Shown in pieces: positions 9,030-59,568 of a DNA stretch of 64,000 nucleotides (position 1 is its first letter; the number at the start of each line of letters is the position of its first letter). The position numbers and the translations under genes were made by a program. Location: positions 64,001 through 128,000 of IMG/VR virus record IMGVR_UViG_3300042691_047309; one strand, given 5' to 3'. This DNA comes from a virus. The notes under the pieces are model-generated. The model saw only the letters and a program-made list of their open reading frames with translations. It did not search any database and was not told the DNA's origin.

Positions 9030-10272
9030 AAGAAAAAATCCAAAAGGGAAATCCTCTGATAATCGTCAGAGGTTTCTAAAAAGGATCGAAGGTCAAATAA
9101 AAAAGGCCTTACCTGACATTGTTAAAGGTACTGGTATAAAAGATATCACATCATCAGGTGGTAAAGTAAAAGTTCCTGTTAAAGGAATATCTGAGCCACA
9201 ATTTACATATGATAAAGATTCTGGTGATAAAAAATATGTTCATCCAGGAAATAAAGAATATGTTCCCGGTGATAAAATAAAAAAACCTCAAGGTGGTCAA
9301 GGTAAAGGATCAGGTAAACAAGGATCAAACGATCCTTCAACCGGAGAAGATGAGTTCTCAGTTACAATTAGTAGAGATGAGTTCTTAGATTACTTTTTTT
9401 CTGATTTAGAACTTCCAGATATGGTTAAAAAACATCTTAACACTATTGTTGATTGGAAACAAAAAAGAGCTGGATTCTCTAATTATGGTAATCCAAGTAG
9501 GTTAAATGTTGTTAAATCATTTAAAAACTCAATGGCTCGTAGAATGGCTCTTGGATTCTTTTTTGATAAAAAAATCAAAGATGTTGAGGAGTTATTAAAA
9601 GATGATACTTTAACTAAAGAAAGAAGATTAGAGTTAGAATTTGAATTAGACAAACTTAAGAAAATGAAACTTAGTGTTTCATTTATGGAGGAAGTCGACC
9701 TTCAATATAATAACTTTGAAAAAGTTGCTGTTCCTACTACTTGTGCTGTTATGTTCTGTATAATGGATATCTCTGGTTCAATGGGTGAAAAGGAAAAGGA
9801 TATTTCAAAAAGATTCTTTATGTTACTTTATATGTTTCTTACAAAACAATATGAAAAAATTGAAATTGTTTTTATTAGACATCACACAGAAGCAAAGGAA
9901 GTTAGTGAAGAAGAATTCTTTAATAGTAAAGAAACAGGTGGAACAGTTGTTACTCCTGCACTTGAACTAATGAATAAGATTATAAAAGAAAGATACTCAA
10001 AAGATTGGAATATCTATGCTGCGCAAGCTTCAGATGGTGATGTTTGGAATCGTTCAGATGCTGATGATTGTTATAAAATATTAGACACTGATATATTAAA
10101 TAAAATTCAATATATGATTTATATTGAAGTTTGTAGAGATAATGATGGTGACCTTTGGAGTAATTATAAATTACTTTCTGAAAAGAGAAATAATTTCGAG
10201 ATTGGAAAAATTCACGAAGTAGGTGAGATATGGACTGTATTTCAAGACTTCTTTAAAAAGAAAACCGTCTAA
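9007..10272 (+). CDS. yeaH: YeaH/YhbH (UPF0229, DUF444) VWA-like protein
   Basis: IVDRR.N.KGKS..NRQRF; VHPGNKEY..GD; AVMFCIMDISGSM; FIRHHT; ETGGTVV; YAAQASDGD. Confidence 0.95.
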   Translation: MSINIVDRRKNPKGKSSDNRQRFLKRIEGQIKKALPDIVKGTGIKDITSSGGKVKVPVKGISEPQFTYDKDSGDKKYVHPGNKEYVPGDKIKKPQGGQGKGSGKQGSNDPSTGEDEFSVTISRDEFLDYFFSDLELPDMVKKHLNTIVDWKQKRAGFSNYGNPSRLNVVKSFKNSMARRMALGFFFDKKIKDVEELLKDDTLTKERRLELEFELDKLKKMKLSVSFMEEVDLQYNNFEKVAVPTTCAVMFCIMDISGSMGEKEKDISKRFFMLLYMFLTKQYEKIEIVFIRHHTEAKEVSEEEFFNSKETGGTVVTPALELMNKIIKERYSKDWNIYAAQASDGDVWNRSDADDCYKILDTDILNKIQYMIYIEVCRDNDGDLWSNYKLLSEKRNNFEIGKIHEVGEIWTVFQDFFKKKTV

Positions 10273-10276
10273 AATA

Positions 10277-11767: not shown

Positions 11768-11846
11768 GTTGAAAATAACTTTCTATTATATATAAATTAT
11801 TATAAACAATAAACTAAAAATAGACTAAAAATAAAAACAAAATTAT

Positions 11847-13343
11847 ATGAAGAAAAAAGATATCAAAAACTTATTCTCAAAATCAGATTGGAATGAAGAA
11901 ACTATTCAAGTTTTTTCTGAAATAATTGATAAAATGTCTATAGACTTACTTGGACTTGATGTTTATGTAAATCAATTTGAAATTGTATCTTCTGAACAAT
12001 TACTAGATGCTTACGCACTTATAGGACTTCCACTTTCATATAACCATTGGAAATTTGGAAAAGATTATGTAGTAAATACAAATAATTATAAAAAAGGAAG
12101 AATGGGTCTAAGCTACGAAATGGTAATTAACAGCTCGCCCTGCATCTCTTACAACTTAGAGGACAATGATACTTGTCTTATGTTATTAGTTTATGCACAT
12201 GTTCAGGGCCATAATCACTTCTTTAAGAACAATTATCTTTTTAAACAATGGACTCAAGCTGATTCCATTATCGATTATATGTTATTTGCTAAAAACTTTA
12301 TTGCCAAATGTGAAGAGAAGTATGGATATGAAGAAGTTGAAATGGTTTTAGATGCTTGTCACGCACTTATGAACTATGGTGTTGATAAATATAAAAAACC
12401 GGCTAAATTATCACCTAAAGAAGAGCATGACAGATTAAAAAAGAAGATTGAAGACGATAGAATTTTACTTGATGACATCTGGAGAACCCTTCCTAAGGAT
12501 GATCAGAAAAGAAAAAGAAAAGAAAGATTTCCGGCTCAACCTGAAGAAAATATTCTTTACTTTATCGAAAAAAATTCACCAAAACTAAAAGCTTGGCAAA
12601 GAGAAATTGTTAGAATTGTTAGAAAGGTATCTCAATACTTTTACCCACAGGGTCAAACTAAAGTTATCAATGAGGGATGTGCGACTTTTACACACTATGA
12701 GATAGTAAATAAAATGTTTGAAGAAGGATATTTAGATGATGGATTTATGTTAGAATTTATGCACCATCATTCTAATGTTATTTTTCAACCGGGATTTGAT
12801 TCTAAATTCTATTCAGGTTTGAATCCATATACTTTAGGCTTTAATATCTTTTCTGATTTAAAAAGAATGTCATTAGATCCAACTCCAGAGGATTTACAAT
12901 GGTTTCCTGAAATTGCTGGAAAAGGAGATTGGAAAGAACAATTTTTATATATTGTTGAAAATTTCAAAGATGAAACATTTGTTCTTCAATATCTTTCTCC
13001 AAAAGTTATGCGTGATATGAGATTATTTGAGATATCAGATGAATCAACTTCTAACTTTTATAAAGTTAGTTCAATTCATAATGAAAAGGGATATAAAAAA
13101 GTTAGACAATCACTTTCTGAATTTTATAACAGAAGTAGATATGTTCCAGATATTCAAGTTTATAATGTTGATGTTTATGGAAATAGAAGTCTTACTTTAG
13201 AATACACTCCTTTAGATGGTAGAGATTTAGATTCAAATGAAGTTGATAAGGTTCTTCCACATGTTAAATACTTATGGGGATTTCCAGTTAAGATGGTTCA
13301 AAGAGGTCAAGAAAAATTGACAGTTATTTCTTCTTTGGAATAA
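11847..13343 (+). CDS. spoVR: SpoVR/YcgB family protein
   Basis: GLP.SY.HW.FGK; GL.YEMVINSSPCISY; GHNHFFKNN; YFYPQGQTKVINEGCATFTHY; NPYTLGF. Confidence 0.95.
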   Translation: MKKKDIKNLFSKSDWNEETIQVFSEIIDKMSIDLLGLDVYVNQFEIVSSEQLLDAYALIGLPLSYNHWKFGKDYVVNTNNYKKGRMGLSYEMVINSSPCISYNLEDNDTCLMLLVYAHVQGHNHFFKNNYLFKQWTQADSIIDYMLFAKNFIAKCEEKYGYEEVEMVLDACHALMNYGVDKYKKPAKLSPKEEHDRLKKKIEDDRILLDDIWRTLPKDDQKRKRKERFPAQPEENILYFIEKNSPKLKAWQREIVRIVRKVSQYFYPQGQTKVINEGCATFTHYEIVNKMFEEGYLDDGFMLEFMHHHSNVIFQPGFDSKFYSGLNPYTLGFNIFSDLKRMSLDPTPEDLQWFPEIAGKGDWKEQFLYIVENFKDETFVLQYLSPKVMRDMRLFEISDESTSNFYKVSSIHNEKGYKKVRQSLSEFYNRSRYVPDIQVYNVDVYGNRSLTLEYTPLDGRDLDSNEVDKVLPHVKYLWGFPVKMVQRGQEKLTVISSLE

Positions 13344-28962: not shown

Positions 28963-29340
28963 ATGGTTACAAAAGAAATTAAACAATTTGTTATTACTCA
29001 GATGAAAGAGGCTGATTGGGAGGTTGAGAAATTCGATGGCTTAAATGAATACAAATCTAAACATATCAACATACAACAAGACACTACTATTAGTCAAAAG
29101 GTTACTTTTCTAATAAAGATACCCAATGGTCATGGTAGCTATCAAAATCTTAAATTAAACCGTAAGGAGTTAGGAATAAATTATCTACGATACAGATTTT
29201 TATTAAAAGGTGTAAAGAGGTCTTGTAAATTAGTTGATAATCGTAGAAGAGAAGCTGAGATTTCTCGCAATTGGAAAAAATTCTTAGAAAAAAATAAAGA
29301 TCTTAATAGGGATAATAAAATAAACCAAATTATAGATTAA
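28963..29340 (+). CDS. Hypothetical protein with RDNKINQII tail
   Basis: ORF track; TATATTTG at 28939. Confidence 0.75.
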   Translation: MVTKEIKQFVITQMKEADWEVEKFDGLNEYKSKHINIQQDTTISQKVTFLIKIPNGHGSYQNLKLNRKELGINYLRYRFLLKGVKRSCKLVDNRRREAEISRNWKKFLEKNKDLNRDNKINQIID

Positions 29341-30458
29341 TGAAACAGGAATTATTTAATCTTATTGAACAAAAATCACCAGGTGCTAAACCGCTATATC
29401 TTGTTGTTCGTGGTTCTCATGCTTATGGAACTAACATTGAAACTTCAGATACTGATTACGCTGGAGTTTTTATTCAGTCTCAAAATGATATTTTAGGAAA
29501 TACTTACAAAGAACAAATAAATGATGATAATAATGATATTGTTATTTATGAAATTCGTAGATTTTTAGAACTTTTAGGATCAAACAATCCAACTGTTTTA
29601 GAACTTCTTAATACACCAGAAGATTGTGTGGTTTATAAAGACCCTATCTTTGATATGGTTTTAGAAAACCGTGATAATTTCATCACTAAGATTTGTGCTA
29701 AGTCTTTTGGTGGTTATGCAAAACAACAGATAAGTAAGGCACGAGGTCAAGATAAAAAACAAAACTGGGAGAAAGATAAAGTTACTCGCAAAACTCCTTT
29801 AGATTTCTGCTATATTCACCGTGGTGAAAAATCAATTCCACTTGTGAGCTTTATGGAAGAAAAAGGCATGGATCAGAGATTTTGTGGTTTATCTAATGTT
29901 CCACATAGTAGAGATACTTATGCTCTTTTCTATGACTTTAAAGAAGAAGAAACTGATGGTGAAATTAAAAATTTAGGATTTAAAGGTATCGCATTTGAAG
30001 ATTCTAATCAAGTTAGATTATCATCCATTCCTATAGATACTCCTAAAAACTATTTTATCGGACACGTTTCTTATAACAAAGATGGATATTCACAACATTG
30101 TAAAGATTATAAATCTTATCAAGAATGGTTAGAAAATCGTAACTTATCACGTTGGGTAGATGTTCAATCTCATGGTCAAAAAATTGACGGTAAGAATATG
30201 ATGCACTGTAAACGTCTAATGGAAATGGCAAAAGAGATTGGACAAGGAAAAGGTATTATTGTAAGACGACCAAATGCACAAGAACTCATTGCAATTCGAA
30301 AAGGTGATGTTGATCTACAAACTTTAATTGATTCTGTTGAAGACGAAATAAAAGAAGTTGATAAAATTTTTGAAGACTCAAATCTTCCTGATAAAATTGA
30401 TGAAAATTTTATAAATAATCTGATTATTAAAATAAGAAAACAAATATATAAGATATGA
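29340..30458 (+). CDS. Pol-beta superfamily nucleotidyltransferase (RlaP/YcgL-like)
   Basis: RGSHAYG....SDTDY.GVF; NNPTVLELL; DGKNMMHC.RL; L..IRKG. Confidence 0.85.
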   Translation: MKQELFNLIEQKSPGAKPLYLVVRGSHAYGTNIETSDTDYAGVFIQSQNDILGNTYKEQINDDNNDIVIYEIRRFLELLGSNNPTVLELLNTPEDCVVYKDPIFDMVLENRDNFITKICAKSFGGYAKQQISKARGQDKKQNWEKDKVTRKTPLDFCYIHRGEKSIPLVSFMEEKGMDQRFCGLSNVPHSRDTYALFYDFKEEETDGEIKNLGFKGIAFEDSNQVRLSSIPIDTPKNYFIGHVSYNKDGYSQHCKDYKSYQEWLENRNLSRWVDVQSHGQKIDGKNMMHCKRLMEMAKEIGQGKGIIVRRPNAQELIAIRKGDVDLQTLIDSVEDEIKEVDKIFEDSNLPDKIDENFINNLIIKIRKQIYKI

Positions 30459-32263: not shown

Positions 32264-33826
32264 TTATTGAATTATTATTTTTATAGTTTTATTTTGATTT
32301 ATTAAGTAATACTGACCCGGAGTACTGATACTAACAATTATATCATTTGATCTAATTTCTGTAACTAAACTTCCGACACTATCAAATATTTTTGAATCTG
32401 ATGGTAAATTTGCTATATTAAAAATGCCATTGTTAGGATTCGGATATACACTAAATTCAGAGTCACTTAAAGTATTAAAATGATTACCGTTATTACCCTG
32501 TCCATTGCCATTATTAGAATTAGAATTATTATTGATTACTCCGTTTTGACTTCCTAATTGTGAATTGTCATACCCTGGATTAGAAGGATCGAATCCGTCG
32601 CTATTTCCGTGTCCATTATTATTGTCATTATCTATAACCAAAGTCATTTCATAAGCAATTCTTACTGCTTCTGCTGAGTTTAATCTACCAGAACCCAACT
32701 TTCCTAAATATTGTGGATTTATTGAATAAATATCCACAGCTGTTATTCTAAGAATAGAATCAATTTCTGAATTTGTAATATTTGGATTCACTGATAACAT
32801 AAGAGCAATTGTACCAGATACATAAGGAGCAGCAAAAGAGGTTCCGGATGAATATGAATACCAACCCGGTGCAGCACTTAGTGGAACATTGTAACCAGGT
32901 GCGCAAATATCCACAGTTGAATTATGTTGATGTGTTGATCCATTTTGAGAAATATGACTATCATTTTGACCAACACTAGTAACTGAAAAAACGTGGTTGT
33001 AAGCGGCTGGATAAACTAAGTTATCAGGTCCACCACAAGTTGAGCCATTGCCAGCAGATGCTACTATAAATGTTCCGTTATTCCATACTTCGTCTATTGC
33101 TAATTGAGCGTAATAGTTATATGTGCAACCAGAAGCCCAACTCAGATTTATTACTTTATAACCATTATAAGATGCTTTTAACATATCATTATAATTCATT
33201 CTAAAAAGACCAAGTGAAGAATTATATCCAATTGAACTTATTCCTGTTGAGTTATTAGTATTCCCAGCAGCTGTAATTGCAACAGCTGTTCCGTGTGTTT
33301 TTGTAGATGTATTTGTAACATCATAGTATTTTACTTTTCCTACTAATTCTTCGTGATTTTGATAGAAGTTTTGGTCTGAAATAGCTATTCTAACAGATGT
33401 ATCACCGGTAGTATAAGACCAGGCGCCTTCGGCATTTATTAAACTAAGTGCCCAGTTATTAGAGAAAGAAGATGTGTAATCGTTAGGAAGTTCTAAAGTC
33501 TCAAATTTAGGAGCGATTTCAACCTTAGAGACTACAGTCGATTTGTTTGTAAGATTTTGTAATAATTCTACTTCATTACAGTTACAATCTATTTGATAAA
33601 CATTTTGTAATTTTTGATTTTTAGAGTCAGGAAATACTTTTTGAACATTTGTAATTTGGTATGTTTCTAAAACAGAGTTTAATTCTTGATTTTGAGAATA
33701 CAATTTATCACCTCTCATTTGTGGTACATTTTGGGACTCATTAATTGTCATCCAAACTGAATTTTGAGCCATTAAGTTTACACTTACTATTAAGATTGAT
33801 GTGATAAGTAGAATTAATTTTTTCAT
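32264..33826 (-). CDS. Secreted S8 subtilisin-like serine protease with T9SS type A C-terminal domain
   Basis: Signal peptide ending MA|Q; triad AISD / HGTAVA / GTSFAAP; C-terminal VYPNP..G.F...PG.Y....K.I.Q. Confidence 0.92.
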   Translation of the reverse strand: MKKLILLITSILIVSVNLMAQNSVWMTINESQNVPQMRGDKLYSQNQELNSVLETYQITNVQKVFPDSKNQKLQNVYQIDCNCNEVELLQNLTNKSTVVSKVEIAPKFETLELPNDYTSSFSNNWALSLINAEGAWSYTTGDTSVRIAISDQNFYQNHEELVGKVKYYDVTNTSTKTHGTAVAITAAGNTNNSTGISSIGYNSSLGLFRMNYNDMLKASYNGYKVINLSWASGCTYNYYAQLAIDEVWNNGTFIVASAGNGSTCGGPDNLVYPAAYNHVFSVTSVGQNDSHISQNGSTHQHNSTVDICAPGYNVPLSAAPGWYSYSSGTSFAAPYVSGTIALMLSVNPNITNSEIDSILRITAVDIYSINPQYLGKLGSGRLNSAEAVRIAYEMTLVIDNDNNNGHGNSDGFDPSNPGYDNSQLGSQNGVINNNSNSNNGNGQGNNGNHFNTLSDSEFSVYPNPNNGIFNIANLPSDSKIFDSVGSLVTEIRSNDIIVSISTPGQYYLINQNKTIKIIIQ

Positions 33827-34086
33827 AACATTTTTTGTTTTTTTGTTTTATAATTTATATAGTTAGATACTACTGAAAAAGACACTGATTTTGACAGTTC
33901 CGAATGTAATTTACACATTCACTTATAGTAAGACATACATATAGATACTTACTAATATAAGTAATACTACTTAGTTAAATTTTTTTGATCATTGGATATA
34001 CTAAAATGCTCAAATCATTAGGTTTTACTGAATCTTTGTATTAAATATAAATATATACTATAGGGATTAAAAATTATTTTTCAATT

Positions 34087-36246
34087 ATGATAAAGTTTTA
34101 TTTATTTTTATTATCAACCATTTTATTGGTCACAAATTCGTTATCACAAATAAATGAGGGTTTTGAGAGTGGTCTACCCGCTAGCTATACAACTACGACA
34201 TCTTATACACTAAGTTCCGGAACTTGGACTGGTCAAGCAAGTGGTGTTATTGGAAACACAACTGCAACTTGGATTAAAAGTGGCACTAGATCCTGCCAGC
34301 TTAGGTCACAGGTTGGATCACAGATAACCACTCCGACTATTACTCAAACAGTTGGCACAGTAACGTTTTGGGCATCAAGAACATCAGGTAGTGGAAGTTC
34401 TTTACAAGTAAATTACTCTACAGATGGTGGGACTACTTGGGTAGCTGCTACCGGATCACCCTTTAGTCTAAACACAACAGTAAGTCAATACACAGCTACT
34501 GTAAATACGACGAGTGTGAATGTCAAATTACAGTTTTATAGAACAGCAGGAACCGTTAATATAGACGATGTTGTTATTAATAAAAATAATAATTCCGTAT
34601 GTTCAACAGTAACAACACTTTCTTTACCATCAACCGTTGGATCAACGACGACTACAGGAACACAGACAACTTGTGGAAAAGTAAATGATTTTCCGGCTGG
34701 TTCTTTTGGATCCTCACTTTACGGTGATGGTCAAGATGCTGTTTGGCAAATTGATGTTCCGGTTAGTGGAGGTAATTATAAATTCGATATAGGAGGTGCT
34801 GGAACTTATAAAATATTATCTTTACACTCTTCTTGTTCCCCAACAAGTGGAAACGCTTTAAATTGGATCACAACTTCATCAGGAACAACTGGTAATTTCT
34901 CACAAAATCTTACAACGGGAACATACTATCTATGGGTAGATACGTGGCCATCTCCTGATTGTGGTCAGTACTCCATAACCATTACAAGATTAGCAAATCC
35001 ACCAGCTCCAAGTTGTATTTCATCACCGACATCTCCAACTAACGGTCAAACAGATGTCAGTACAGCCCCAACGTTATCATGGCCAACCGCATCTAACGCT
35101 ACAAGTTATGATGTATATTTTGGGTCTACTTTACCGATCACACCAACGATTAACGTTACTACAACATCTTATACTCCAAGTTCATTATCAATCACTACAA
35201 CATATTATTGGAAAATAGTACCTAAAAATTCTTCGGGTGAGCCTACAGGGTGTTCAACATGGTCTTTTACTACTTTAACACCAATTACTAATGACGACCC
35301 TTCAGGATCAACAACTTTAATTGTTAATGATCCTTTAGGTTATAAAACTTTTACGAATGTTGGATCATCAAATACGACAACAGAATCTTCACCTACATGT
35401 GCATCATATAATGGTGAGGATGTTTGGTTTAAGGTAGTTGTACCGAATGGGATAACAACGCTTGATTTTGATACTCAAACAGGTGGTATAACTGATGGTG
35501 GTATGTCTATTTACAGAGGAACTATTGGTTCTTTAACTCAAATTGAATGTGATGATGATGATGCATTAGATGGTCTAATGTCTTGGATATATCGAGAAGA
35601 TTTTACTCCCGGTGAAACAATTTATATCAGATTTTGGGAATATGGTGGTGGTACAGGAACATTTAAGATTTATGTTAGTACTCCTCAAGCACTACCAGTT
35701 GAACTAATTAGTTTTAATGCAACTTGTTCCGATGAAGGTATATTAATTAACTGGAAAACCGCTTCTGAACATAATAGTTCCCACTTTACACTTGAGAAGT
35801 CAAGAGATGGCGAAGATTGGTCTCAAATTTATACCGAACAAGCAGCTGGTAATAGCAATCAAATTATTACTTATAGTTTCACAGATAAAAACACTATTAA
35901 CGGTATTAATTACTATAGATTGAACCAATATGATATAGATGGTGTTTATGAACAATACGGACCTATTTCTGCAAATTGTTTAGAAAAAACAAAAGGATAT
36001 TTTTCTACTTTTCCGAATCCAAGTTTTTCAACATTTAATATTACTGTCAATAATGAAAGTATTATCGGTGAATCTATTATAGAAATAGTAGATGATATTG
36101 GTAGAAAAATAACAAATAAAAATGTCACTGTAAGTCCTGGAATAAACCTTTTCAACTTAAATATAGATATCGAACCAGGTATTTATTACATAAACATTCA
36201 TAATGATTATTTTTCTACCGATGTAATAAAACAAATTATAAGGTAA
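34087..36246 (+). CDS. Secreted T/S/G-rich multidomain surface protein with T9SS type A CTD
   Basis: Signal peptide LS|Q; FN3-like segment (LSW...ATSYDVYFG...TYYWKIVP.N); DVWF domains; LPVELISF...W.TASE.N...YYRL.Q.D.DG; FPNP...GIY. Confidence 0.9.
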   Translation: MIKFYLFLLSTILLVTNSLSQINEGFESGLPASYTTTTSYTLSSGTWTGQASGVIGNTTATWIKSGTRSCQLRSQVGSQITTPTITQTVGTVTFWASRTSGSGSSLQVNYSTDGGTTWVAATGSPFSLNTTVSQYTATVNTTSVNVKLQFYRTAGTVNIDDVVINKNNNSVCSTVTTLSLPSTVGSTTTTGTQTTCGKVNDFPAGSFGSSLYGDGQDAVWQIDVPVSGGNYKFDIGGAGTYKILSLHSSCSPTSGNALNWITTSSGTTGNFSQNLTTGTYYLWVDTWPSPDCGQYSITITRLANPPAPSCISSPTSPTNGQTDVSTAPTLSWPTASNATSYDVYFGSTLPITPTINVTTTSYTPSSLSITTTYYWKIVPKNSSGEPTGCSTWSFTTLTPITNDDPSGSTTLIVNDPLGYKTFTNVGSSNTTTESSPTCASYNGEDVWFKVVVPNGITTLDFDTQTGGITDGGMSIYRGTIGSLTQIECDDDDALDGLMSWIYREDFTPGETIYIRFWEYGGGTGTFKIYVSTPQALPVELISFNATCSDEGILINWKTASEHNSSHFTLEKSRDGEDWSQIYTEQAAGNSNQIITYSFTDKNTINGINYYRLNQYDIDGVYEQYGPISANCLEKTKGYFSTFPNPSFSTFNITVNNESIIGESIIEIVDDIGRKITNKNVTVSPGINLFNLNIDIEPGIYYINIHNDYFSTDVIKQIIR

Positions 36247-50118: not shown

Positions 50119-51612
50119 ATGATAATTAAGAACATTCACGAAAAATTACTTAACGGTATCCAAACGATGCTTATTGATACTAAAATCAATTTGCCTTACT
50201 ACGGAGAATTCAACCTACACGTTTCATTTCATGAGCAAGATTCAATTGGAACCTGTGCTGTAAATGTTACCTCAAAAGGTATGAACTTCTTTTATTCTCC
50301 AAAGTTTTTGGAAAATATGTCTCAGAAAGAAGTGAACTTCATCACATTACATGAAGATTTTCACTTACTTTTTAATCATCCTCGTAGAACAATCACTGGT
50401 CAATACGATCACAAATTGTCCAACATCGCTCAAGATATGATTATTAATCACGTTATCTGGGAAGATATCCCACACGCTTTTGTTGAAATTCCAAAGTCTC
50501 CAGATGGTAAGAATATGGCACTTTTTGTTCCGAAAGAATATGAAGGTAAACTTATCTTTGAAGAGCTTTACGAATGGTTGAAAGAAGAAAAAGAAAAATG
50601 GCAGAAAGAACAAAAACAAAACTCTCAATGTCAGTCTTGTGGTGGATCTGGAAAGAAACAAGATGGTCAATGTCAGCAACCTCAAAAAAGTGATGACCAA
50701 AAACAAGATGGTAAGGGAAAAGGTGAAAAACAAAATGGTGAAGGAGACCAACCAGAGGATGGTCAAAGTCAATCAGAAGGTCAGGGTCAAGGAGAATCTT
50801 GTACAGATTGTCAAGGAACTGGTAATGAAGAAGGAAAAGACTCTTCCGGAAAACCTTCTTATGGACCCTATGGTAAAAATCCATCTAAAGATGGTGAGTC
50901 ACTTGATACTTGGTCCAAAGAGCAAATCTTCCAAGATATGGAGAATGGGAATGGAGAGTATCTTGACAAACACATCGGTGATGATGTACCTGAAGAATTG
51001 AGAGATGCGATGGTTAAGGATGTTATGGAGAGATTAGCCGCTCGTGGTTTATCAGCGGGTAATGTTGAACAAACACTAAACAAACTTCGTAAGAAACGAA
51101 AAGATTATCTTCGTGAAATCAAAAGAGCAGTTTCTAATATGATTTTTGGAACTGTTAAAGAACGAACAATTGTTAAACCTAATCGAAAAGGTATATCTGG
51201 TTTAAAAGGTAATCGTAAAGTTAAAACCAAAATTAATTGTATCTTAGACACATCAGGTTCAATGGGTGGAACTTTTGAGAGAGTTTTGAACTATGTTTAT
51301 CGTAATGATATTGAAATCAATTTGATTGAGGCTGATACTGAGGTTAAATGGATTGAAAATATTAAAAATGCGAAAAAACTTGAAACTCTTAAAATCAAAG
51401 GTCTTGGAGGAACAATTCTTCAACCTGCGATTGACTTAGTTGCTGACCAATACAATGAGTTTAACACTGTTGTATTGACTGATGGTTACTGCGACTCTCT
51501 TGACTTATCTAAGATTAAAGGTAGAGTCTTAATGGTATCGATTGGTGTAAAAGTTCCGATTTCTCGTTCTAATGGAAAAGTCAAGCAGATTATGGTTGAG
51601 AAAGAAAACTAA
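50119..51612 (+). CDS. DUF2201-like metallopeptidase + VWA protein with a split DnaJ-type Zn-finger insert
   Basis: LHEDFH (HExxH); NIAQD..IN; CQSCGGSG and CTDCQGTG; ILDTSGSM, GGT, VLTDG MIDAS. Confidence 0.88.
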   Translation: MIIKNIHEKLLNGIQTMLIDTKINLPYYGEFNLHVSFHEQDSIGTCAVNVTSKGMNFFYSPKFLENMSQKEVNFITLHEDFHLLFNHPRRTITGQYDHKLSNIAQDMIINHVIWEDIPHAFVEIPKSPDGKNMALFVPKEYEGKLIFEELYEWLKEEKEKWQKEQKQNSQCQSCGGSGKKQDGQCQQPQKSDDQKQDGKGKGEKQNGEGDQPEDGQSQSEGQGQGESCTDCQGTGNEEGKDSSGKPSYGPYGKNPSKDGESLDTWSKEQIFQDMENGNGEYLDKHIGDDVPEELRDAMVKDVMERLAARGLSAGNVEQTLNKLRKKRKDYLREIKRAVSNMIFGTVKERTIVKPNRKGISGLKGNRKVKTKINCILDTSGSMGGTFERVLNYVYRNDIEINLIEADTEVKWIENIKNAKKLETLKIKGLGGTILQPAIDLVADQYNEFNTVVLTDGYCDSLDLSKIKGRVLMVSIGVKVPISRSNGKVKQIMVEKEN

Positions 51613-51614
51613 TC

Positions 51615-51643
51615 AAAAAGACCAACCTATAGTTGGTCTTTTT
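51615..51643. terminator. Intrinsic terminator
   Basis: AAAAAGACCAAC-CTATA-GTTGGTCTTTTT. Confidence 0.85.
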
Positions 51644-51666
51644 ATTTTAATAAATATATTTGTAAT

Positions 51667-52233
51667 ATGAAAGTAATTTTTTTGGATTTTGATGGTGTTA
51701 TGTGTCTCTCTGAGCAATGGGGTGGACGAGCTAAAAAAATGCTAAAGTTTCAAAGAGAATTTCCGGGTTCAACTGAAGATGATATGCCAGCTTGGATTAA
51801 GCTAGATAATTTTGATTTTAAGGCAACTAAAGTTCTTAACTCTATTTTATTACATCACGATGTTGAGATAGTTTGCTCTTCAGATTGGAAATTATTTGCT
51901 ACTTTAGATCAACTTCAAGATATGTTTGATAAATACGGTGTGATTAAATCACCAATAGATGTCACACCAACTCTTGTTAAGTATGAGTCTAAATCTCAAT
52001 TCACACAAAGTGAATTAGAGCAATGGAGAGTTAAAGAAATTAAAACGTGGTTAGATTTACATCCAGAAGTAACACACTGGGTTGCTGTTGATGATATGGA
52101 CTTAGGTGAGAAGTTTGGTCCTATTTCTGGAAATTCCAATGGTGGTCTAACTAACTTCATATTAACTAAGCAGTATATTGGAATTAAACAATCCGGAATA
52201 AAAGAAAAAATCATTAAGTTCTTAAATGATTAA
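51667..52233 (+). CDS. HAD-superfamily phosphatase (RNA-repair 'Swiss Army Knife' type)
   Basis: VIFLDFDGV; IVCSSDW; R..EI..WL..H; WVAVDD. Confidence 0.85.
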   Translation: MKVIFLDFDGVMCLSEQWGGRAKKMLKFQREFPGSTEDDMPAWIKLDNFDFKATKVLNSILLHHDVEIVCSSDWKLFATLDQLQDMFDKYGVIKSPIDVTPTLVKYESKSQFTQSELEQWRVKEIKTWLDLHPEVTHWVAVDDMDLGEKFGPISGNSNGGLTNFILTKQYIGIKQSGIKEKIIKFLND

Positions 52234-52723
52234 TGTTTTAGAAATGGACATGAGTATTGAATACAAGTTCGCGTGGAATGTAGCTGCTCGAGCTTGTTTC
52301 AGTATTTTCTATATCCTACCAGACTGTATGTTACTTTATAGACATCAAGTGTCGGAACCATATATCTGGACTAAATTCGGATGTAATCACCCTGATAAAA
52401 TAGATTTAGTAAAACTAGATGGTAAAAATCTAATGTTATTTCATGTTGATGTTTATAAAGAAAAAACTCATAAATTTAAAGACCTAATTGATTATTGTCA
52501 GTCTAATAACATTGATATCTGGATTCCTTTTCCACTTAAAAACCTTTGGAGAACTGAAGAGCCTCATCTTCAGATTATGAAAGATATACTAGATAATTAT
52601 CAATACAGCACTTACGATTTAACTGGAATGAACTACAGGAGTGAAAATGAAATAAGTAGATTGGTTAAAGAAAAAACGAAACCTATATTAAGAGATATAA
52701 AATTAAGAAACTTATTTGATTAA
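52226..52723 (+). CDS. Hypothetical protein with RDIKLRNLF tail
   Basis: ORF track; tail motif. Confidence 0.75.
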   Translation: MINVLEMDMSIEYKFAWNVAARACFSIFYILPDCMLLYRHQVSEPYIWTKFGCNHPDKIDLVKLDGKNLMLFHVDVYKEKTHKFKDLIDYCQSNNIDIWIPFPLKNLWRTEEPHLQIMKDILDNYQYSTYDLTGMNYRSENEISRLVKEKTKPILRDIKLRNLFD

Positions 52724-52974
52724 TATTCTATTTTCTCAACATCATCTAAATCAACATAGTATTCATTACCATCGATTTCTACTGTTATTAAACCATCTTC
52801 ATCTATATCGACCGGAGTAATTGGATCTTTTGGATCATTATCAGGATATTCTTTAACAATTGTAGAATAGATAACTCCTCTTTTCTTAATACATTTTATT
52901 ATATCATCAATTGTGATAAGAGTTCCTTCTTCATTATTCTGTTTGAAATCCTCAAATAATTTTATCCATTTCAT
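52720..52974 (-). CDS. Small protein with CTS-like leader (MKWIKLFEDF)
   Basis: ORF track; TTAATATATA 4 nt upstream. Confidence 0.75.
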   Translation of the reverse strand: MKWIKLFEDFKQNNEEGTLITIDDIIKCIKKRGVIYSTIVKEYPDNDPKDPITPVDIDEDGLITVEIDGNEYYVDLDDVEKIEY

Positions 52975-52978
52975 AAAT

Positions 52979-53002
52979 TATATATTAAAAACTTAATATA
53001 TA
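52979..53002. promoter_or_regulatory. Back-to-back divergent putative late promoters
   Basis: TATATATTAA-AAAC-TTAATATATA inverted pair, each directly upstream of a CTS-leader gene. Confidence 0.75.
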
Positions 53003-53008
53003 AAAAGT

Positions 53009-53821
53009 ATGAAGTATATTAAAAGATTCAACGAAGAGCTTAAACCAGAAACTTATATTAGTGCTGGTTATAGATTAAAAAATTTACCAGGTGGTGGAAA
53101 AAGAAGATCTTCACCTCTTATTGATTATGGTTTTGGGAAAAAGTATGGTTTCTATAAAATGCACTGGGCTAATGGTTCATCTCTTTTAGGAAAAGATTTA
53201 ACATTTACTAATCTAATATGTGAGAGTTACTTTGGGAGACCTGACTCTTCAAAAATTGAGACTTTTAGGTATTCAGCAGAAGATGCTGTGGAACTGTGGA
53301 AACAAGGTAATCATCCTCTTTGTATGACTTTTAATTTTGTTTTTCAATCTACTGAAGAAACAAAAGATAAATTAAATAGTAGTAGTGAACTTAATACCAA
53401 CTGTCCAATGTTCTCATTTGAGATTTGGTTTAGTAACTGGGAAGAAGGTTTAGATTCTTATAATTGGGATTATGATACTGAAGAGCCAATGACTGGAGAT
53501 ACCGTAGTTGATTTAAATGGTATGTATAAATGGACTAATGAACTTACAATCTATAAGAAGAAACCTGTTAAAATGTATTACTCAAAATCATATCCTTTCT
53601 GTGGTATATTTTCAGATAGAGCTTCTGCTTTGAAATTCAAAAAAGAATTAAACAGTTTAATGGATCCACATAAAGAAAAAGTTATGGAACTTTTAAGCTG
53701 TGTTAATGCTTCTGCTGACGACATAGAAGATTTTGAAGATAGAATCAATAAAATAAGTTTAAATCATCTTTTCTCAGTTGATGAAAAAACAACCAATTGG
53801 TTCACATACAATGAATTGTAA
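53009..53821 (+). CDS. Paralog array member 1 (CTS-like leader MKYIKRFNEEL)
   Basis: Shared NEELKP.TY.SA and F.DR.SA.KF motifs. Confidence 0.82.
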   Translation: MKYIKRFNEELKPETYISAGYRLKNLPGGGKRRSSPLIDYGFGKKYGFYKMHWANGSSLLGKDLTFTNLICESYFGRPDSSKIETFRYSAEDAVELWKQGNHPLCMTFNFVFQSTEETKDKLNSSSELNTNCPMFSFEIWFSNWEEGLDSYNWDYDTEEPMTGDTVVDLNGMYKWTNELTIYKKKPVKMYYSKSYPFCGIFSDRASALKFKKELNSLMDPHKEKVMELLSCVNASADDIEDFEDRINKISLNHLFSVDEKTTNWFTYNEL

Positions 53822-53834
53822 ATAAATTAATAAT

Positions 53835-54560
53835 ATGAAACACTTAAAGAAATTTAACGAAGAACTTAGACCACAGACTTATATGTCTGCTGCTAGAAAA
53901 TTAGATAAATTAGGTCACCACGATAGAGCAAATGCTTTAAAAGACTGGGCTAAAGAAACTGAGAAAAAAGAAGAAATGATTAAGTGGCAAGACCGCATAC
54001 AAGATTATGCTCAGTTTGGAACATTTAAATTGACTATAAAAAATCCAGAAACTAATGAAACATTAACTGGTGATTTTCATTTAGATGTTAATTTTGATGA
54101 TTTATCATTTAGTGATGAGCCTGAAAGTGGTATAACTTTCTTCTTAGGTTTAATTCCAACTTCTGAAGATTTAATCTATCAGTATATGGAACTTTGTCCA
54201 GATTATGATTTCGGAAACGGTTTCTTCTGGGGTAAAATCTTTAATTTACAATATGAATTAGGAGATACTGTTGTATTTACTAAGTGGAATATGTGGGACT
54301 ATGATGATGAAATGAATGGTAAAATAAATTTTGCTGACAGAGCATCTGCTAACAAGTTCAAGAATTTAATTATACAAATATTTAGTAATCCACAATTAGG
54401 TTATCCATCTGGATATACCGACGCTGATGACTTATATGAAAAATTAACTAATACTATCTTAGCAGAGAACTCATTCTCTTCTGATTATGGATTTAAATTA
54501 GAAGATGCTGCTGAATACATGAGAACAATTAGTCCAAATTTACTTTCTTCTACACTATGA
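53835..54560 (+). CDS. Paralog array member 2 (MKHLKKFNEEL)
   Basis: NEELRPQTYMSAARKL.KLGH..R; FADRASANKFKNL. Confidence 0.82.
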   Translation: MKHLKKFNEELRPQTYMSAARKLDKLGHHDRANALKDWAKETEKKEEMIKWQDRIQDYAQFGTFKLTIKNPETNETLTGDFHLDVNFDDLSFSDEPESGITFFLGLIPTSEDLIYQYMELCPDYDFGNGFFWGKIFNLQYELGDTVVFTKWNMWDYDDEMNGKINFADRASANKFKNLIIQIFSNPQLGYPSGYTDADDLYEKLTNTILAENSFSSDYGFKLEDAAEYMRTISPNLLSSTL

Positions 54561-55417
54561 GATACTTAAAAAGATTTAATGAAGAGTTAAAAGCATCTAC
54601 TTACAAAAAAGCAGGTGAGAAATTCACTCAGATGGGTCACAAAAGAAGAGGATCTGAATTATTAGATTATGCAACTCAAGTTGAATTAAAAGAAAAATAT
54701 CAAAAATTAAGACAGGCTCAGGATGAAAATAAGGAGTATGGTTTATTTGATATTACGATGACAAGAGGTTATGGGTCAAATAAGAAAGATGTATTTTCTG
54801 GTAAATTTTATCTACAAATGTGTTTAGAATCTGATTGGTTCAAAGACCAATTATGGGATTGGTTTTATGAAGGTATGGATTGGCATATGGGAATTGCTAT
54901 GGAGTTTGCCATTATACCAGCTGATGACGAAACACTTAGAATGTTGGAAACAAGTGAAGACGGAGATATAGTGTATTTTAGAAATAATACTATGTGGGGA
55001 GATGACTATAGATACTGGACAAATAGACTTTGGCTTACACTCTGTGATAAAAATGCAGTTCCTCTTTATATAGCAGGTGCTGGTGGATTTGAAGATAGAG
55101 ATTCTTTTACATTCCATTTTAATTCAAGATCAGAAGCTATGAAATTTAGAAACTTATTGGCTAATACATTAGAAGGAAAATCTGATTGGGGTTCTTATAA
55201 TGGTAGAACGATTTCTGACCAATTAAAATCAACAATTATTATGGATGAAGAAGACTGGAGATCAAAACTAATGGATAAGTTTTTACCGGGTAGAGAAGAT
55301 GAATATGATATTAATAATCCAGATACTTGGCCAAAAAATACTTTTACAGAAGATACTTACAAAGGAGCTATCGAGGCGGTTAAGAGAATGTCAGTAAATG
55401 GTTTATATAGAGATTAA
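54557..55417 (+). CDS. Paralog array member 3 (MRYLKRFNEEL)
   Basis: NEELKASTY..A..K...GH..R; FNSRSEAMKFRNL; ends NGLYRD. Confidence 0.82.
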   Translation: MRYLKRFNEELKASTYKKAGEKFTQMGHKRRGSELLDYATQVELKEKYQKLRQAQDENKEYGLFDITMTRGYGSNKKDVFSGKFYLQMCLESDWFKDQLWDWFYEGMDWHMGIAMEFAIIPADDETLRMLETSEDGDIVYFRNNTMWGDDYRYWTNRLWLTLCDKNAVPLYIAGAGGFEDRDSFTFHFNSRSEAMKFRNLLANTLEGKSDWGSYNGRTISDQLKSTIIMDEEDWRSKLMDKFLPGREDEYDINNPDTWPKNTFTEDTYKGAIEAVKRMSVNGLYRD

Positions 55418-55420
55418 GAG

Positions 55421-56692
55421 ATGAAGTATTTAAAAAGATATGAAGAAGCTGTCGGTGTTAGATTGAAATCAGAATTGAAATCAACAGTTGAAGATTTGCT
55501 TATTGATTTAAGAGATGATGAATTTGAAACTAAAGTATCTGAAATAGATTATCATTCTCAAAAAGTAAAGGTCAAAGTCAATATACAAAGAGATAGAGAA
55601 TTTACTTATGAAGATATAAAACCTCAAATTGAATCTATTTGGTCTTATTTAAATGAAGAAGGATTTACAATTGAAAACTTCACTAGTGTAGAAGACTGGG
55701 AAAACTTTGAAGAACCAGAAGACGAATTTACAATTCATCAAAAAGATAAAGGTTATGTGTGGTCCACTGGTGAAGATGGTGAGATTAAATCTATTGACAA
55801 AGAATTTCAAAGAAGACCAAATGTCATGATTTCACCAATATATAATCCAGAAAACTTTGATAGAATTCAAAAGTGGATATTTGAGATTTCATTTACTAAA
55901 GATAAAATTGTAGTTGATAGAAAGAGAGGTCATCTTACAACTAATGAAGAGTTAAAACCACAAACATATATAAGTGCTGCTGATAAACTAACTAAGTTAG
56001 GTCATATTAAAAGACCTGAGCAATTAAAATCTTGGGCTGAAACTATTAAGCAAAGAGAAATAGATACTAAACACAAAATGGCTTTAGAAGAAGCAAAAAA
56101 ATTAGGACAATTTCAATTAAGATTTGTTGGTAGAGGAAGTGAAATAAGGTTTGCAAACTGTTACATTCAACTTTATTTTAATTCCGATTATTACCTAAGT
56201 GAGATGTTACCAGAGTGGTTAGATGGTGAGAGAAACACACTTTGGTCACAGTTTATGTTTGGGATTCATCCGGTTTCTTCAGAAGATTTAGAAGTTTTAA
56301 ATTGGTTTTCTGGTGATATTAAAGGTTATACAAATAGAGCGAATGGTATAATCTGGTTACAAGATGTTTATATCAATCTGACAAATCAAAACTGCAAAGA
56401 TGAAGATGGTGTGACTTTACCTATGACCCCTTCAGGTGTAGTTTCAATCGAATGCTCTGAATTTAGTGAAGTTTATTTTGCAAATAGAAGAGAAGCTATT
56501 AAGTTTAGAAATTTATTAGTCGATCTTTTCGAGGGAGATATAGATTACATACAACCGAATGGTAAAGACTTTAAAGAAGATATAATTGAAACTTGGTGTG
56601 ATCATGAAGAAAGACCAGTTGAACTTTCAGAGTTAGAAGATTTTATTGATAAACTTAGAGTAATGAGATTAAATTCATTATATAGAGATTAA
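55421..56692 (+). CDS. Paralog array member 4 with an extra N-terminal domain (MKYLKRYEEA)
   Basis: Internal NEELKPQTYISAADKL.KLGH..R; FANRREAIKFRNL; ends NSLYRD. Confidence 0.82.
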   Translation: MKYLKRYEEAVGVRLKSELKSTVEDLLIDLRDDEFETKVSEIDYHSQKVKVKVNIQRDREFTYEDIKPQIESIWSYLNEEGFTIENFTSVEDWENFEEPEDEFTIHQKDKGYVWSTGEDGEIKSIDKEFQRRPNVMISPIYNPENFDRIQKWIFEISFTKDKIVVDRKRGHLTTNEELKPQTYISAADKLTKLGHIKRPEQLKSWAETIKQREIDTKHKMALEEAKKLGQFQLRFVGRGSEIRFANCYIQLYFNSDYYLSEMLPEWLDGERNTLWSQFMFGIHPVSSEDLEVLNWFSGDIKGYTNRANGIIWLQDVYINLTNQNCKDEDGVTLPMTPSGVVSIECSEFSEVYFANRREAIKFRNLLVDLFEGDIDYIQPNGKDFKEDIIETWCDHEERPVELSELEDFIDKLRVMRLNSLYRD

Positions 56693-56708
56693 TTATTATA
56701 TTTACAAA

Positions 56709-57881
56709 ATGAAAATAAAAAGATATAGACAATTCTTAGAATCAAACTCTAATGATATGTGGAACATTATTCCACAGTCAGTGAAAGATTTGCAACAACT
56801 TTTTAAATCAAAAGAAAAAAAATTATATGTTGTTGGAGGTGCCGTTAGAGACTTTCTAACAGGAGATACACCAAAAGACTTTGACTTAGCAACTGATGCA
56901 CTTCCAGATGAAGTATTAGAAATATTAGGAAGTAAATATAAAACTAACCTACAAGGTAAAGCATTTGGAGTGGTCGTGGTTTTCACCAATGATCAACCAG
57001 AAGGAATGGAGATTGCAACATTCCGAGAAGATGTTTCAAAAGGTAGAAACCCTGAAGTTAAATTAGGAGTTACCATTGAAGATGATGTTAAAAGAAGAGA
57101 TTTAACTTATAACGCACTTTTCTATGATTTAGATACTAAAGAGATTGTTGATTTAACTGGAGGACGTGAGCATTTAGCAAAAGGAATAACTCAAATGGTT
57201 GGTGATCCTATTGAAAGATTTGATGAAGATTCTTTAAGAATTTTGAGAGCTTTTAGATTTGCTTCAAGATATGGACACCCTTTACATAAAGATACTGAAG
57301 CGGCAATTGAAAAAAGAAAACAATTAGAAAATATAGATCCTGAAACCGGTGAAATGAAAAGAATTTCACAAGAAAGAGTTTGGGAAGAGATGAACAAGGC
57401 GTGGAAACAAGCAAAAGACTATAGAAACTATTTACAATTCTTTACTAAGTTTGATATGTGGTCTGAAGTTTTTCCAGGCTCTGAAATCAATACCGATCTG
57501 GTTGATAGTAAAGACTTTGTGGTTGTTATTGCTAACTTATTTAAGAATGAAAACACGGATGGTTTAGAAAAGAGATTGGTTCAAGACTACAGAATAGATT
57601 CTCAAATGGCATCAAAAATAGTTTTCTTAATTAGATTATTAGAATTGACACCAGATACAGCATTTGATTTACATAAGTCAAAATTACAATGTCATATTGA
57701 AGATAAAACTATTTTAGAATGGTTTAGAGTTTTGGGTGTAAATGATACTGTTAAAATTAAATTTGTAGAATACAAACCAACTACTTCTGCTCAGGAATTG
57801 ATGTTACAGGGTTTTAAAGGAAAGGCTTTAGGTGATGAGTTAAAAAGACTTGAAATTGAAAATTTCAAGAAGATTTTATAA
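56709..57881 (+). CDS. cca: CCA tRNA nucleotidyltransferase / poly(A) polymerase family, with CTS-like leader
   Basis: YVVGGAVRD; DFDLAT; EIATFR; RRDLTYNAL; EDSLRILRAFRF; ISQERV; leader MKIKRYRQFLES. Confidence 0.9.
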   Translation: MKIKRYRQFLESNSNDMWNIIPQSVKDLQQLFKSKEKKLYVVGGAVRDFLTGDTPKDFDLATDALPDEVLEILGSKYKTNLQGKAFGVVVVFTNDQPEGMEIATFREDVSKGRNPEVKLGVTIEDDVKRRDLTYNALFYDLDTKEIVDLTGGREHLAKGITQMVGDPIERFDEDSLRILRAFRFASRYGHPLHKDTEAAIEKRKQLENIDPETGEMKRISQERVWEEMNKAWKQAKDYRNYLQFFTKFDMWSEVFPGSEINTDLVDSKDFVVVIANLFKNENTDGLEKRLVQDYRIDSQMASKIVFLIRLLELTPDTAFDLHKSKLQCHIEDKTILEWFRVLGVNDTVKIKFVEYKPTTSAQELMLQGFKGKALGDELKRLEIENFKKIL

Positions 57882-57913
57882 TTTTCTCATTTTAAAAATA
57901 GATATATACTGCT

Positions 57914-58378
57914 ATGATTTACCACTTATCGTATTTAAGAGACCGTTTAGGAAATAACTATTTAGGAATTAATATTCCAGTCGATTTAATTGAACCCTAT
58001 TTAAATGAATTAAAAAATCACTTAACTACTGAAGAATACTCAACTTATGTCCAAAATCATCAAAATAGAGATTCTGGTCATTATCACATTACGGTTATAA
58101 ATGTTATGGATTATAATAAGTTAGCGGAAGAATGGGGAATGGATAAATTTATTAATTCTTTAGAACCGGTTTTTCACTATGAAATCGATGACTTAGAAAT
58201 GTTAGGAGTTGGAAAGGCCATAAAAGAACCAAACGTGGCTTATTTTATCGTCTGTAATTCGGATAAATTAGATGCTGTAAGAACTAGATTTGATTTACCA
58301 AAACAAGATTTTCATGTTACAATAGGTTTCAAAGATAAAGATGTTTTTGGTGTAAGAAAAAATGAATTACTAAATTAA
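57914..58378 (+). CDS. 2H phosphoesterase (RNA ligase / cyclic phosphodiesterase-like)
   Basis: Two HxT motifs: YHITVI and FHVTIGF. Confidence 0.85.
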   Translation: MIYHLSYLRDRLGNNYLGINIPVDLIEPYLNELKNHLTTEEYSTYVQNHQNRDSGHYHITVINVMDYNKLAEEWGMDKFINSLEPVFHYEIDDLEMLGVGKAIKEPNVAYFIVCNSDKLDAVRTRFDLPKQDFHVTIGFKDKDVFGVRKNELLN

Positions 58379-58429: not shown

Positions 58430-58702
58430 ATGGAAAAAATGGAACTTTATGATTACTACAATCTTGATGAATGTGTTGATAGAAAAAAAGTAATTACTAC
58501 ATTAAAGAAGTTTAAAAAAGACGGAAAGATCGATTATTCTTTAGATGGTGAGGAACTTCATATTGAAGATATAGATTTAGATGATACTGAAATCGAGTAT
58601 TTGTCTGAACTACTTGACGAAAATGATGTTTTTCCAAATCCTGATAAGGAAGAAGGTGATGATGATTATTCAGACTTTGATGACTACGATGATGATTATT
58701 AA
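58430..58702 (+). CDS. Very acidic small protein
   Basis: D/E-rich 90-aa ORF. Confidence 0.72.
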   Translation: MEKMELYDYYNLDECVDRKKVITTLKKFKKDGKIDYSLDGEELHIEDIDLDDTEIEYLSELLDENDVFPNPDKEEGDDDYSDFDDYDDDY

Positions 58703-58703
58703 T

Positions 58704-58735
58704 AAAAAAGAGTTAGATTTTTCTAACTCTTTTTT
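58704..58735. terminator. Bidirectional intrinsic terminator
   Basis: AAAAAAGAGTTAGA-TTTT-TCTAACTCTTTTTT. Confidence 0.85.
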
Positions 58736-59568
58736 GTTTTCTTTCTTTTACGGTTCCAAAAATAAAGAAATATTGGAATAATTATAGTAGTCATTAACCA
58801 TTGCCAGTATTTCTCAAAAAAACCTTCAACTACAATCGGAAGATTTGATTTGATTTTAATATTTTTATTGAATACAATAATGTCTTTATTTAAATCTTTC
58901 AACTTAATAACTAACTTTAAAGGAGTTTCACCACTTTTTTTAGGTGTCACAATCCATTCCCATTCTGTGTAACTTTCATTATCTATGTTTTGAACAGGAG
59001 TTGAAAGTGCAACAATGTTGAAAGCTTCTGAGTCACCTCTTAAATCAGCCGACATCTCACCAGAAACTTTGATATCATCAATTGTTGCGACGCTCTCATA
59101 TTGAGGATTGTTTATAAAATCATCATTTCCTAATATCAAAACTGATTTATTTTGACCATTTGTCTTTTTAGATATTCTTACTTTTATTGAGTAGTTTTTA
59201 GATACCTTCATGCTTTCAGGTACTGAATAAGCTATCCATCCTTTTGCAGTATCAACTATATTTTCAGAGATATTTTGAATTGACCTATCCACCACTTTTA
59301 AATTTGTATTTTTTTCGTGTTTTTCAACTAGTCTTATTTGATGAATCACATCAATTTTATTGATGTCGTCTTTTTTTATTACTTTCATTTCTTCAACTAA
59401 TTCTTGTCTAATTAAAGTGTCTTTTATCGGCTCAACATTTAATTCATCTTTAATAACCGAGACAGTATCTAGTTTTAAAGACTCTAAATTCGTATCTGAT
59501 TGGGTTACTTTTTGTGTTGCACATGAGACTAACCAAAATGCACTAATAAAAATAAAAATAAATCTCAT
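58723..59568 (-). CDS. Putative lipoprotein with C-terminal TM anchor and basic tail
   Basis: Lipobox-like LVSC; W.W.VTP...G...L.L Ig-like segment; WQWLMTTIIIPIFLYFW-NRKRKK. Confidence 0.78.
   Translation of the reverse strand: MRFIFIFISAFWLVSCATQKVTQSDTNLESLKLDTVSVIKDELNVEPIKDTLIRQELVEEMKVIKKDDINKIDVIHQIRLVEKHEKNTNLKVVDRSIQNISENIVDTAKGWIAYSVPESMKVSKNYSIKVRISKKTNGQNKSVLILGNDDFINNPQYESVATIDDIKVSGEMSADLRGDSEAFNIVALSTPVQNIDNESYTEWEWIVTPKKSGETPLKLVIKLKDLNKDIIVFNKNIKIKSNLPIVVEGFFEKYWQWLMTTIIIPIFLYFWNRKRKKTKKS

Follow-up and report, generated by a model that had tools for sequence, protein, structure and literature searches.

A capsid-targeting-like leader marks the CCA-adding tRNA nucleotidyltransferase of a T4-like megaphage as plausible virion cargo

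The stretch of DNA analyzed here, referred to as the window, comprises bases 64,001-128,000 (64,000 nucleotides; 29% G+C) of a 175,894-base viral contig, IMG/VR record IMGVR_UViG_3300042691_047309, and is a fragment of a T4-like megaphage. It encodes a class II CCA-adding tRNA nucleotidyltransferase whose N-terminus (MKIKRYRQFLES) carries a leader, or tag, resembling the capsid-targeting sequence (CTS) of the T4 internal proteins. This leader is real, its profile picks out only the three internal proteins among 36 T4 proteins, it is absent from core replication and shell proteins, and it goes together with a late promoter box; packaging of the enzyme in the virion is therefore plausible, and we consider it fairly likely. 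The best explanation of the locus as a whole, to which we assign a probability of roughly 0.52, is that of a late-made, tag-loaded and injected CCA-adding enzyme that would rebuild tRNA 3' ends. The two features at its center are the following.

56709-57881, + strand: class II CCA-adding tRNA nucleotidyltransferase, 390 residues, without an HD domain; assigned from Pfam, PHROG and NCBIfam, motifs and fold.
56709-56744, + strand: capsid-targeting-like leader, 12 residues, ending in hydrophobic-x-Glu; assigned from profile score and conservation, with a predicted cut after Glu11.

Sequence matches for the contig come from many freshwater metagenomes. Judged by the CCA protein, the nearest complete genome is LR745206 (W01; 634,780 bases, 75% identity) and the second-nearest is LR756502 (W02; 642,428 bases, 48% identity), and the gene order flanking the CCA gene is common to the window, W01 and W02. 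The leader profile was built from 52 N-termini of W01, with the CCA protein excluded, and a threshold of 7.0 bits was applied. The CCA leader of the window scores 15.9 bits on this other-genome profile, a value equaled by one of 3,922 internal Met-starting sequence windows, which makes it more than a chance match. When 36 annotated T4 proteins were scored, ipI (11.7 bits), ipII (9.0 bits) and ipIII (9.2 bits) were recovered and the other 33 stayed under the threshold (maximum 3.4 bits). Fifteen W01 homologs of T4 shell, tail, packaging and replication proteins (terminase, sheath, tube, portal, capsid, baseplate, helicase, primase, polymerase, clamp loader and recombination proteins) scored no higher than 3.5 bits. 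Leader carriers at threshold amount to 42 of 242 open reading frames (ORFs) on this contig and 151 of 949 in W01.

Conservation points in the same direction. The leader is retained in 116 of 120 close CCA homologs, the remaining four being gene calls at an internal Met, and across 19 distinct CCA leaders, conservation with synonymous codon changes is seen at positions 6 (Tyr/Phe), 9 (Phe), 10, 11 (Glu) and 12 (Ser), whereas nine different residues occur at position 7. The aromatic-x-x-Phe pair and the Glu are thus kept and the two residues between aromatic and Phe vary, which matches the T4 CTS, where residues 4 and 7 serve targeting and residues 8 and 10 processing (PMC9026906). In W01 the five conserved residues occur in 15 DNA spellings, and the idea of the leader as a fixed DNA cassette was rejected. 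In the structure model of the enzyme the leader is a low-confidence appendage. It is absent from the one cellular homolog found (Bacteroidales, L076) and from the aligned PDB enzymes. The CTS-like leader of the original prediction is accordingly borne out by profile score, recovery of T4 ipI-III and conservation.

The leader is also detachable from the enzyme. In a survey of 150 representative CCA homologs at 37-57% identity, the catalytic domain is N-terminal in 99, of which 28 leave no space for a leader; many others carry a different leader ending in hydrophobic-x-Glu or lie within polyproteins. On the CCA tree the leader was gained or lost at least ten times, a rough count that depends on a midpoint root and on automatic labels, a few of them wrong (e.g., P0125). 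At one locus (L101) an untagged CCA gene, preceded by a host-type promoter box, adjoins a tagged gene. Given its very many carriers, which include glutamate racemase, pterin dehydratase and adenylate cyclase, the leader might be another kind of protein-level tag, such as a degron or an assembly-site or partner-docking peptide, rather than a packaging signal. This seems improbable to us in view of the selective match to the three internal proteins of T4, and because its end motif recurs at the propeptide site of the capsid protein and at junctions between modules inside proteins (in W02 the leader-like start of the separate exonuclease ends at the position of the fusion junction).

The promoter context of the CCA gene is given by four further features.

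52993-53002, + strand: late-type promoter box heading the tagged operon, read from sequence; the box is enriched before tagged genes.
53009-56692, + strand: four tagged ORFs of unassigned family, without a Pfam or PHROG match; leader scores 20.9-25.2 bits.
56697-56704, + strand: putative host-type promoter box (TAnnTTTA, one mismatch) directly before the CCA gene, from sequence and upstream comparison.
58701-58738, + strand: terminator-like hairpin, the first downstream of the CCA gene, closing a unit of paralogs, CCA, 2H-SAK and an acidic 90-residue ORF.

Judged by its promoter box, the tagged operon is expressed late. The ATATATA-type late box is present before the capsid, portal, protease, sheath and terminase genes of W01; it precedes 61 of 67 tagged unit heads in that genome vs. 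114 of 334 untagged ones (p 9e-19), and 14 of 16 vs. 35 of 86 on this contig. The host-type box shows the reverse distribution, with none before tagged unit heads (0/67 in W01, 0/16 here) and 62 before the 334 untagged ones of W01. Late shell and terminase genes have the same late promoter without the leader. A sigma-70 promoter scan was uninformative (51 sites vs. 40 +/- 5 in shuffles). The CCA gene had originally been placed at the end of a late paralog operon; the late box and the paralogy of the third and fourth tagged ORFs (E 3e-22) agree with this, however, the CCA gene is not the last of its unit, which runs on to the hairpin. The host-type box, TAnnTTTG, is the Bacteroidota promoter consensus. 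Immediately upstream of the CCA gene, several close relatives have a perfect TAnnTTTG, a late box or the two together, and the host-type box found there in many relatives suggests that the enzyme is expressed early too.

The fourth tagged ORF (55421-56692) consists of two modules with a protease-type, leader-end-like junction near residue 175, the second module being homologous to the third ORF. A paralog of the upstream array was sought in the Atlas, without a usable match. Contigs of related strains from lake metatranscriptomes overlap both the operon and the CCA gene; such contigs cannot reveal strand, timing or an RNA origin and were not used as evidence.

By motifs and modeled fold, the gene product is a full CCA-adding enzyme. 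It matches PF01743 (E 3.6e-30) and the PHROG family of tRNA nucleotidyltransferases (E 2.4e-58), and it has motif A with two catalytic Asp (residues 43-59), RRD (129-131) and EDxxR (173-177), which are invariant or nearly so in the alignment, as well as the basic/acidic motif Arg106-x-Asp108, 20 residues before RRD. The criteria for a full enzyme were taken from Hoffmeier et al. (PMC2910056): the basic/acidic motif and an intact flexible loop are absent in CC-adding enzymes (PMC2910056, PMC7947759), and A-adding enzymes and poly(A) polymerases have a small-residue form of the downstream motif (PMC2910056). The phage enzyme has the Glu-Arg form of the latter (ERxxxExxxhh, residues 222-232), and its flexible loop is within one residue of the length of the human one. 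An alignment-based model reached a predicted local distance difference test (pLDDT) score of 93.9, being uncertain only at residues 1-14, and its best structural matches are CCA-adding enzymes (E 2.5e-17, TM 0.69). The original call of a class II CCA-type nucleotidyltransferase therefore stands on family matches, motifs and fold alike. That the gene encodes a poly(A) polymerase, or an enzyme restricted to adding CC or A, is very improbable, and the poly(A) polymerase and CC-adding identities were rejected. PcnB is the top NCBIfam score, far under its cut-off, and the loop is two to three residues shorter than in Bacillales enzymes; against these points, the signature that poly(A) polymerases have between motif A and the loop was found neither in the query nor in any of 270 homologs, the loop and basic/acidic motif are intact, and the basic/acidic, EDxxR and ERxxxE motifs are present in 120 of 120 close homologs.

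An HD phosphoesterase domain was found neither by Pfam nor by motif, and the fold accounts for all 390 residues. In the E. coli CCA enzyme it is the HD domain that heals blocked ends. Lacking it, the phage enzyme cannot itself heal such ends and a separate healer would be needed. Related CCA domains occur inside proteins of 1,100-1,660 residues in other large phages (L122, L143, L156, L158, L164, L172, L177, L183). An untagged member of the same subfamily (L099:6001-7101) lies on contigs of 1-3.2 Mb, from a bacterium or giant virus, next to genes for a glutaminyl-type tRNA synthetase, SIR2 and a protein kinase.

There is a need for the enzyme that the original prediction missed and that is simpler than counter-defense, namely phage tRNA genes without CCA. 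None of the five tRNA genes here encodes CCA, nor do any of the 61 in W01 or the seven in a further relative, G001 (3 of 48 do in W02), and most tRNA genes of this phage group end in discriminator-C-A-A; a CCA enzyme is thus required whatever the defense context. Two tRNA-like genes (L081:4221-4488; Glu and a CUA anticodon) were called only with introns allowed and may be odd tRNAs or miscalls. CCA-less tRNA genes account for the enzyme gene but not for its tag. One could argue that the infected cell produces the enzyme only to complete some 60 CCA-less phage tRNAs, with the leader a passenger of the late cassette or the protein loaded without benefit. The host-type box before the CCA gene in several relatives fits such housekeeping, as do the 28 of 99 related enzymes without leader room, from which it follows that the leader is dispensable for the enzyme. 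Nonetheless, the leader persists as a protein sequence, with synonymous changes in its codons, in enzymes as little as 48% identical, its five residues have many DNA spellings in W01, late shell and terminase genes have the late promoter but not the leader, and G001, with so few tRNA genes, retains a leader-like CCA start. We regard housekeeping alone as a possible but rather unlikely account.

When 115 tagged W01 proteins and 44 from this contig were scanned against Pfam, known families were few; they included CCA, an Rnl1 ligase and a DEDDh exonuclease with a fused 2H domain. The latter two lie outside the window.

Genome 53,941-55,260 (L083:15941-17257): tagged Rnl1 ligase, with host-type and late-type boxes directly upstream.
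Genome 33,638-35,344 (L082:13641-15344), - strand: tagged 2H-DEDDh exonuclease fusion, 568 residues, in the order 2H, inserted module, DEDDh.

The Rnl1 leader is borderline here (7.0 bits), and the ligase is also tagged in W01, W02 and G002. The 2H-DEDDh protein is tagged in 109 of 120 homologs, which appear as the fusion, with other inserts, or as separate tagged genes. In W02 the 2H and DEDDh parts are separate genes; the 2H is tagged, and the leader-like start of the exonuclease ends at the junction position of the fusion. Together, these proteins could form an injected line of tRNA 3'-end and RNA repair in which 2H-DEDDh would open cyclic phosphates and trim blocked or wrongly extended ends, CCA would rebuild them and Rnl1 would reseal cut tRNAs, a tentative scheme that we regard as possible but rather unlikely. 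Other tagged enzymes here (genome 61,176-62,238 and 145,090-145,761; L084, L085) are pterin-4a-carbinolamine dehydratase, glutamate racemase and adenylate/guanylate cyclase, and further tagged W01 proteins include Nudix hydrolases, an M15 peptidase, a methyltransferase and an NFACT RNA-binding protein.

The original prediction had instead grouped the CCA enzyme with three other genes, and its calls of a 2H protein after CCA, a HAD phosphatase 4.5 kb upstream and RlaP at 29340 are confirmed by PF22547, PF18143 and PF10127. These genes, and one that separates HAD from the CCA operon, are as follows.

57914-58378, + strand: 2H-SAK phosphoesterase, untagged; PF22547 (E 1.4e-20), both HxT motifs, own late-type box at 57902-57908.
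51667-52233, + strand: HAD_SAK_2 phosphatase, untagged, a separate unit 4,476 bases upstream of CCA; PF18143 (E 1.2e-23).
29340-30458, + strand: RlaP nucleotidyltransferase, untagged, 27 kb away and not part of the locus; PF10127 (E 1e-20).
52720-52974, - strand: tagged 84-residue ORF, convergent with the HAD unit and conserved in relatives.

According to that prediction, all four proteins would form one counter-defense kit that heals and rebuilds tRNA cut by toxins ahead of phage translation, with the CCA enzyme pre-loaded in the capsid. In its favor, PMC7824862 names all four families among the RNA repair parts of jumbo phages, and at L100, where the surrounding genes differ, 2H-SAK comes directly after an untagged CCA gene, which makes a functional link between these two credible. 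The pre-loading claim survives for the CCA enzyme, whose packaging is plausible from leader and late context, but action of the partners alongside it at that stage is not supported, since HAD (0.1 bits), 2H-SAK (1.2 bits) and RlaP (2.0 bits) all score under the leader threshold and RlaP is untagged in four genomes. Linkage of the four is not conserved across genomes, as seen in 83 distinct loci and whole-genome checks. 2H-SAK is within 4 kb of CCA in 16 of the 83, almost all of the window's own clade, and it was found close to CCA at none of some 60 loci that are the most distant. In G001 the CCA gene is displaced by 30 kb, with 2H-SAK left among its other neighbors, so that the adjacency is partly regional synteny. 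HAD, whose unit has a host-type box (51655-51662) and a terminator upstream (51615-51643), is near CCA in 4 of 83 loci and RlaP in none (most flanks spanning only 4 kb); HAD lies 104 kb from CCA in W01 and was not detected in W02 and G001, nor in G002/G003 in a search without a positive control. HAD and RlaP were thus rejected as locus members, being unlinked in relatives and HAD being cut off by the convergent gene, and the four-gene kit is improbable, if slightly less so than the alternative-tag explanation. 2H-SAK is likely a partner of CCA after infection and not virion cargo. Its length is 154-155 residues in the window lineage and about 245 in distant relatives, where a C-terminal part without a Pfam match is added.

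Returning to the injected CCA enzyme, the course of events would be as follows. The enzyme would be transcribed late with the tagged operon and, as the host-type box suggests, perhaps early as well. By analogy with T4, its leader would bind the prohead core, a gp21-type protease would probably trim it after Glu11, and some copies would be ejected with the DNA and refold; T4 heads load 20-200 copies of foreign fusions. In the next cell the enzyme could rebuild tRNA 3' ends from the first minutes, presumably a benefit of timing, with worn or clipped host tRNAs and the phage's own CCA-less tRNAs as candidate substrates. Rapid repair of host tRNAs, eroded in starved cells or attacked by toxins, would be a further and purely conjectural benefit; CapRel/FaRel2 and MenT3 are described as toxins that modify tRNA 3' ends. 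The candidate healer of blocked ends is the tagged 2H-DEDDh fusion at injection and the untagged 2H-SAK later, and HAD and RlaP would be independent accessories made after infection.

Several points weigh against this interpretation. The host most likely has a CCA enzyme of its own, which makes any gain from pre-loading uncertain. With about 150 tagged ORFs per genome, compared to three in T4, many of the proteins may enter the head in low copy number or stay out of it altogether. Of some seven RNA-end enzymes three are tagged, where the base rate is 16-17% (one in six); this is suggestive only, the numbers being too small to prove enrichment, and the tagged 2H domain, which resembles Acb1 (24.9 bits, under the cut-off), may degrade immune signals rather than heal RNA. 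Trimming after Glu11 is predicted by analogy, with a mismatch at the site: this reads Phe-Leu-Glu, whereas T4 gp21 cuts at Leu/Ile-x-Glu and the conserved capsid site of the relatives is Ile-Asn-Glu. Phe is the commonest P3 residue of W01 leaders (49/134), and head loading in T4 is possible without the cut. Finally, genes for a gp21-type protease and gp23-type capsid protein were not found on the 176 kb contig. Both are encoded in W01, W02 and G001, where the protease has intact His and Ser motifs and is fused to a long C-terminal part. This part (L046 = W01 198,546-200,669; L192; L193) is a 500-residue Glu-rich tail with many hydrophobic-x-Glu sites and is probably a scaffold.

Elsewhere in the window, the gene at 50119-51612 encodes a 497-residue protein in which an HExxH motif and a vWA-like C-terminus were read from the sequence (no NCBIfam match); it is 80-89% identical in relatives and syntenic with the CCA locus. 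At 6988-13343, PrkA kinase, DUF444 and SpoVR genes form a host-like trio interrupted by a tagged ORF on the opposite strand.

The T4-type capsid cargo known so far is made up of restriction inhibitors and a single ADP-ribosyltransferase. If our interpretation is correct, an injected tRNA-end polymerase would represent the pre-loading of translation maintenance by a phage, and it would solve the chicken-and-egg problem of countering translation shut-off with proteins that themselves need translation. An injected repair line, if it exists, would defeat tRNA-targeting defenses or revive translation in a starved host before any phage protein is made, as part of a tagged cargo of about 150 proteins. 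The tag also offers a sequence rule by which to predict the injected proteome of uncultured 600 kb phages, and it sorts the RNA-repair genes of megaphages into those predicted to be injected and those predicted to be expressed, which can be tested.

The new element is the T4-type capsid tag on a tRNA enzyme; the RNA-repair gene set itself is known, as its families are already listed among jumbo-phage RNA repair parts. In the available text of Iyer et al. (2021; PMC7824862) and Al-Shayeb et al. (2020; PMC7162821), the CCA-adding enzyme, RlaP, Rnl1, 2H and Swiss-army-knife HAD are described as tRNA-repair parts, and there are reports of huge phages that carry CCA enzymes together with dozens of tRNAs. 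Al-Shayeb et al. assign the largest genomes to the Mahaphage clade, for which Bacteroidetes hosts were predicted. The available text of the two papers proposes no capsid cargo, whereas here CCA, Rnl1 and 2H-DEDDh are tagged and the rest are not. No paper placing a CCA enzyme in virions was found in the literature searched, most subscription papers being outside its reach. Compared to the class II CCA-adding enzymes 6qy6, 1miv and human 4x4w, the phage enzyme is alike in core motifs, flexible loop and head-neck-body-tail fold (TM-score 0.64-0.69), however, it is only about 25% identical, bears the N-terminal tag and belongs to an HD-less subfamily found mostly on viral contigs and often within polyproteins.

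The closest precedent is that of T4 IPI-III and their CTS (PMC9026906, PMC3012670, PMC12373910), which share with the present system a short basic N-terminal peptide with aromatic-x-x-Phe and a terminal hydrophobic-x-Glu, late expression, and unrelated mature parts behind one tag, with a gp21-type protease and gp23-type capsid in relatives of this phage. The differences are that the leader has 11 residues and a P3 Phe here and 10 residues in T4, that the tag is on 16-17% of all ORFs here, and that the predicted cargo is a 44 kDa RNA polymerase-type enzyme rather than a small nuclease inhibitor. T4 Alt, a virion-delivered ADP-ribosyltransferase, is a precedent for a large enzyme that is packed in the head, processed by gp21 and ejected, although RNA polymerase is its substrate and its propeptide differs (0.1 bits on the leader profile).

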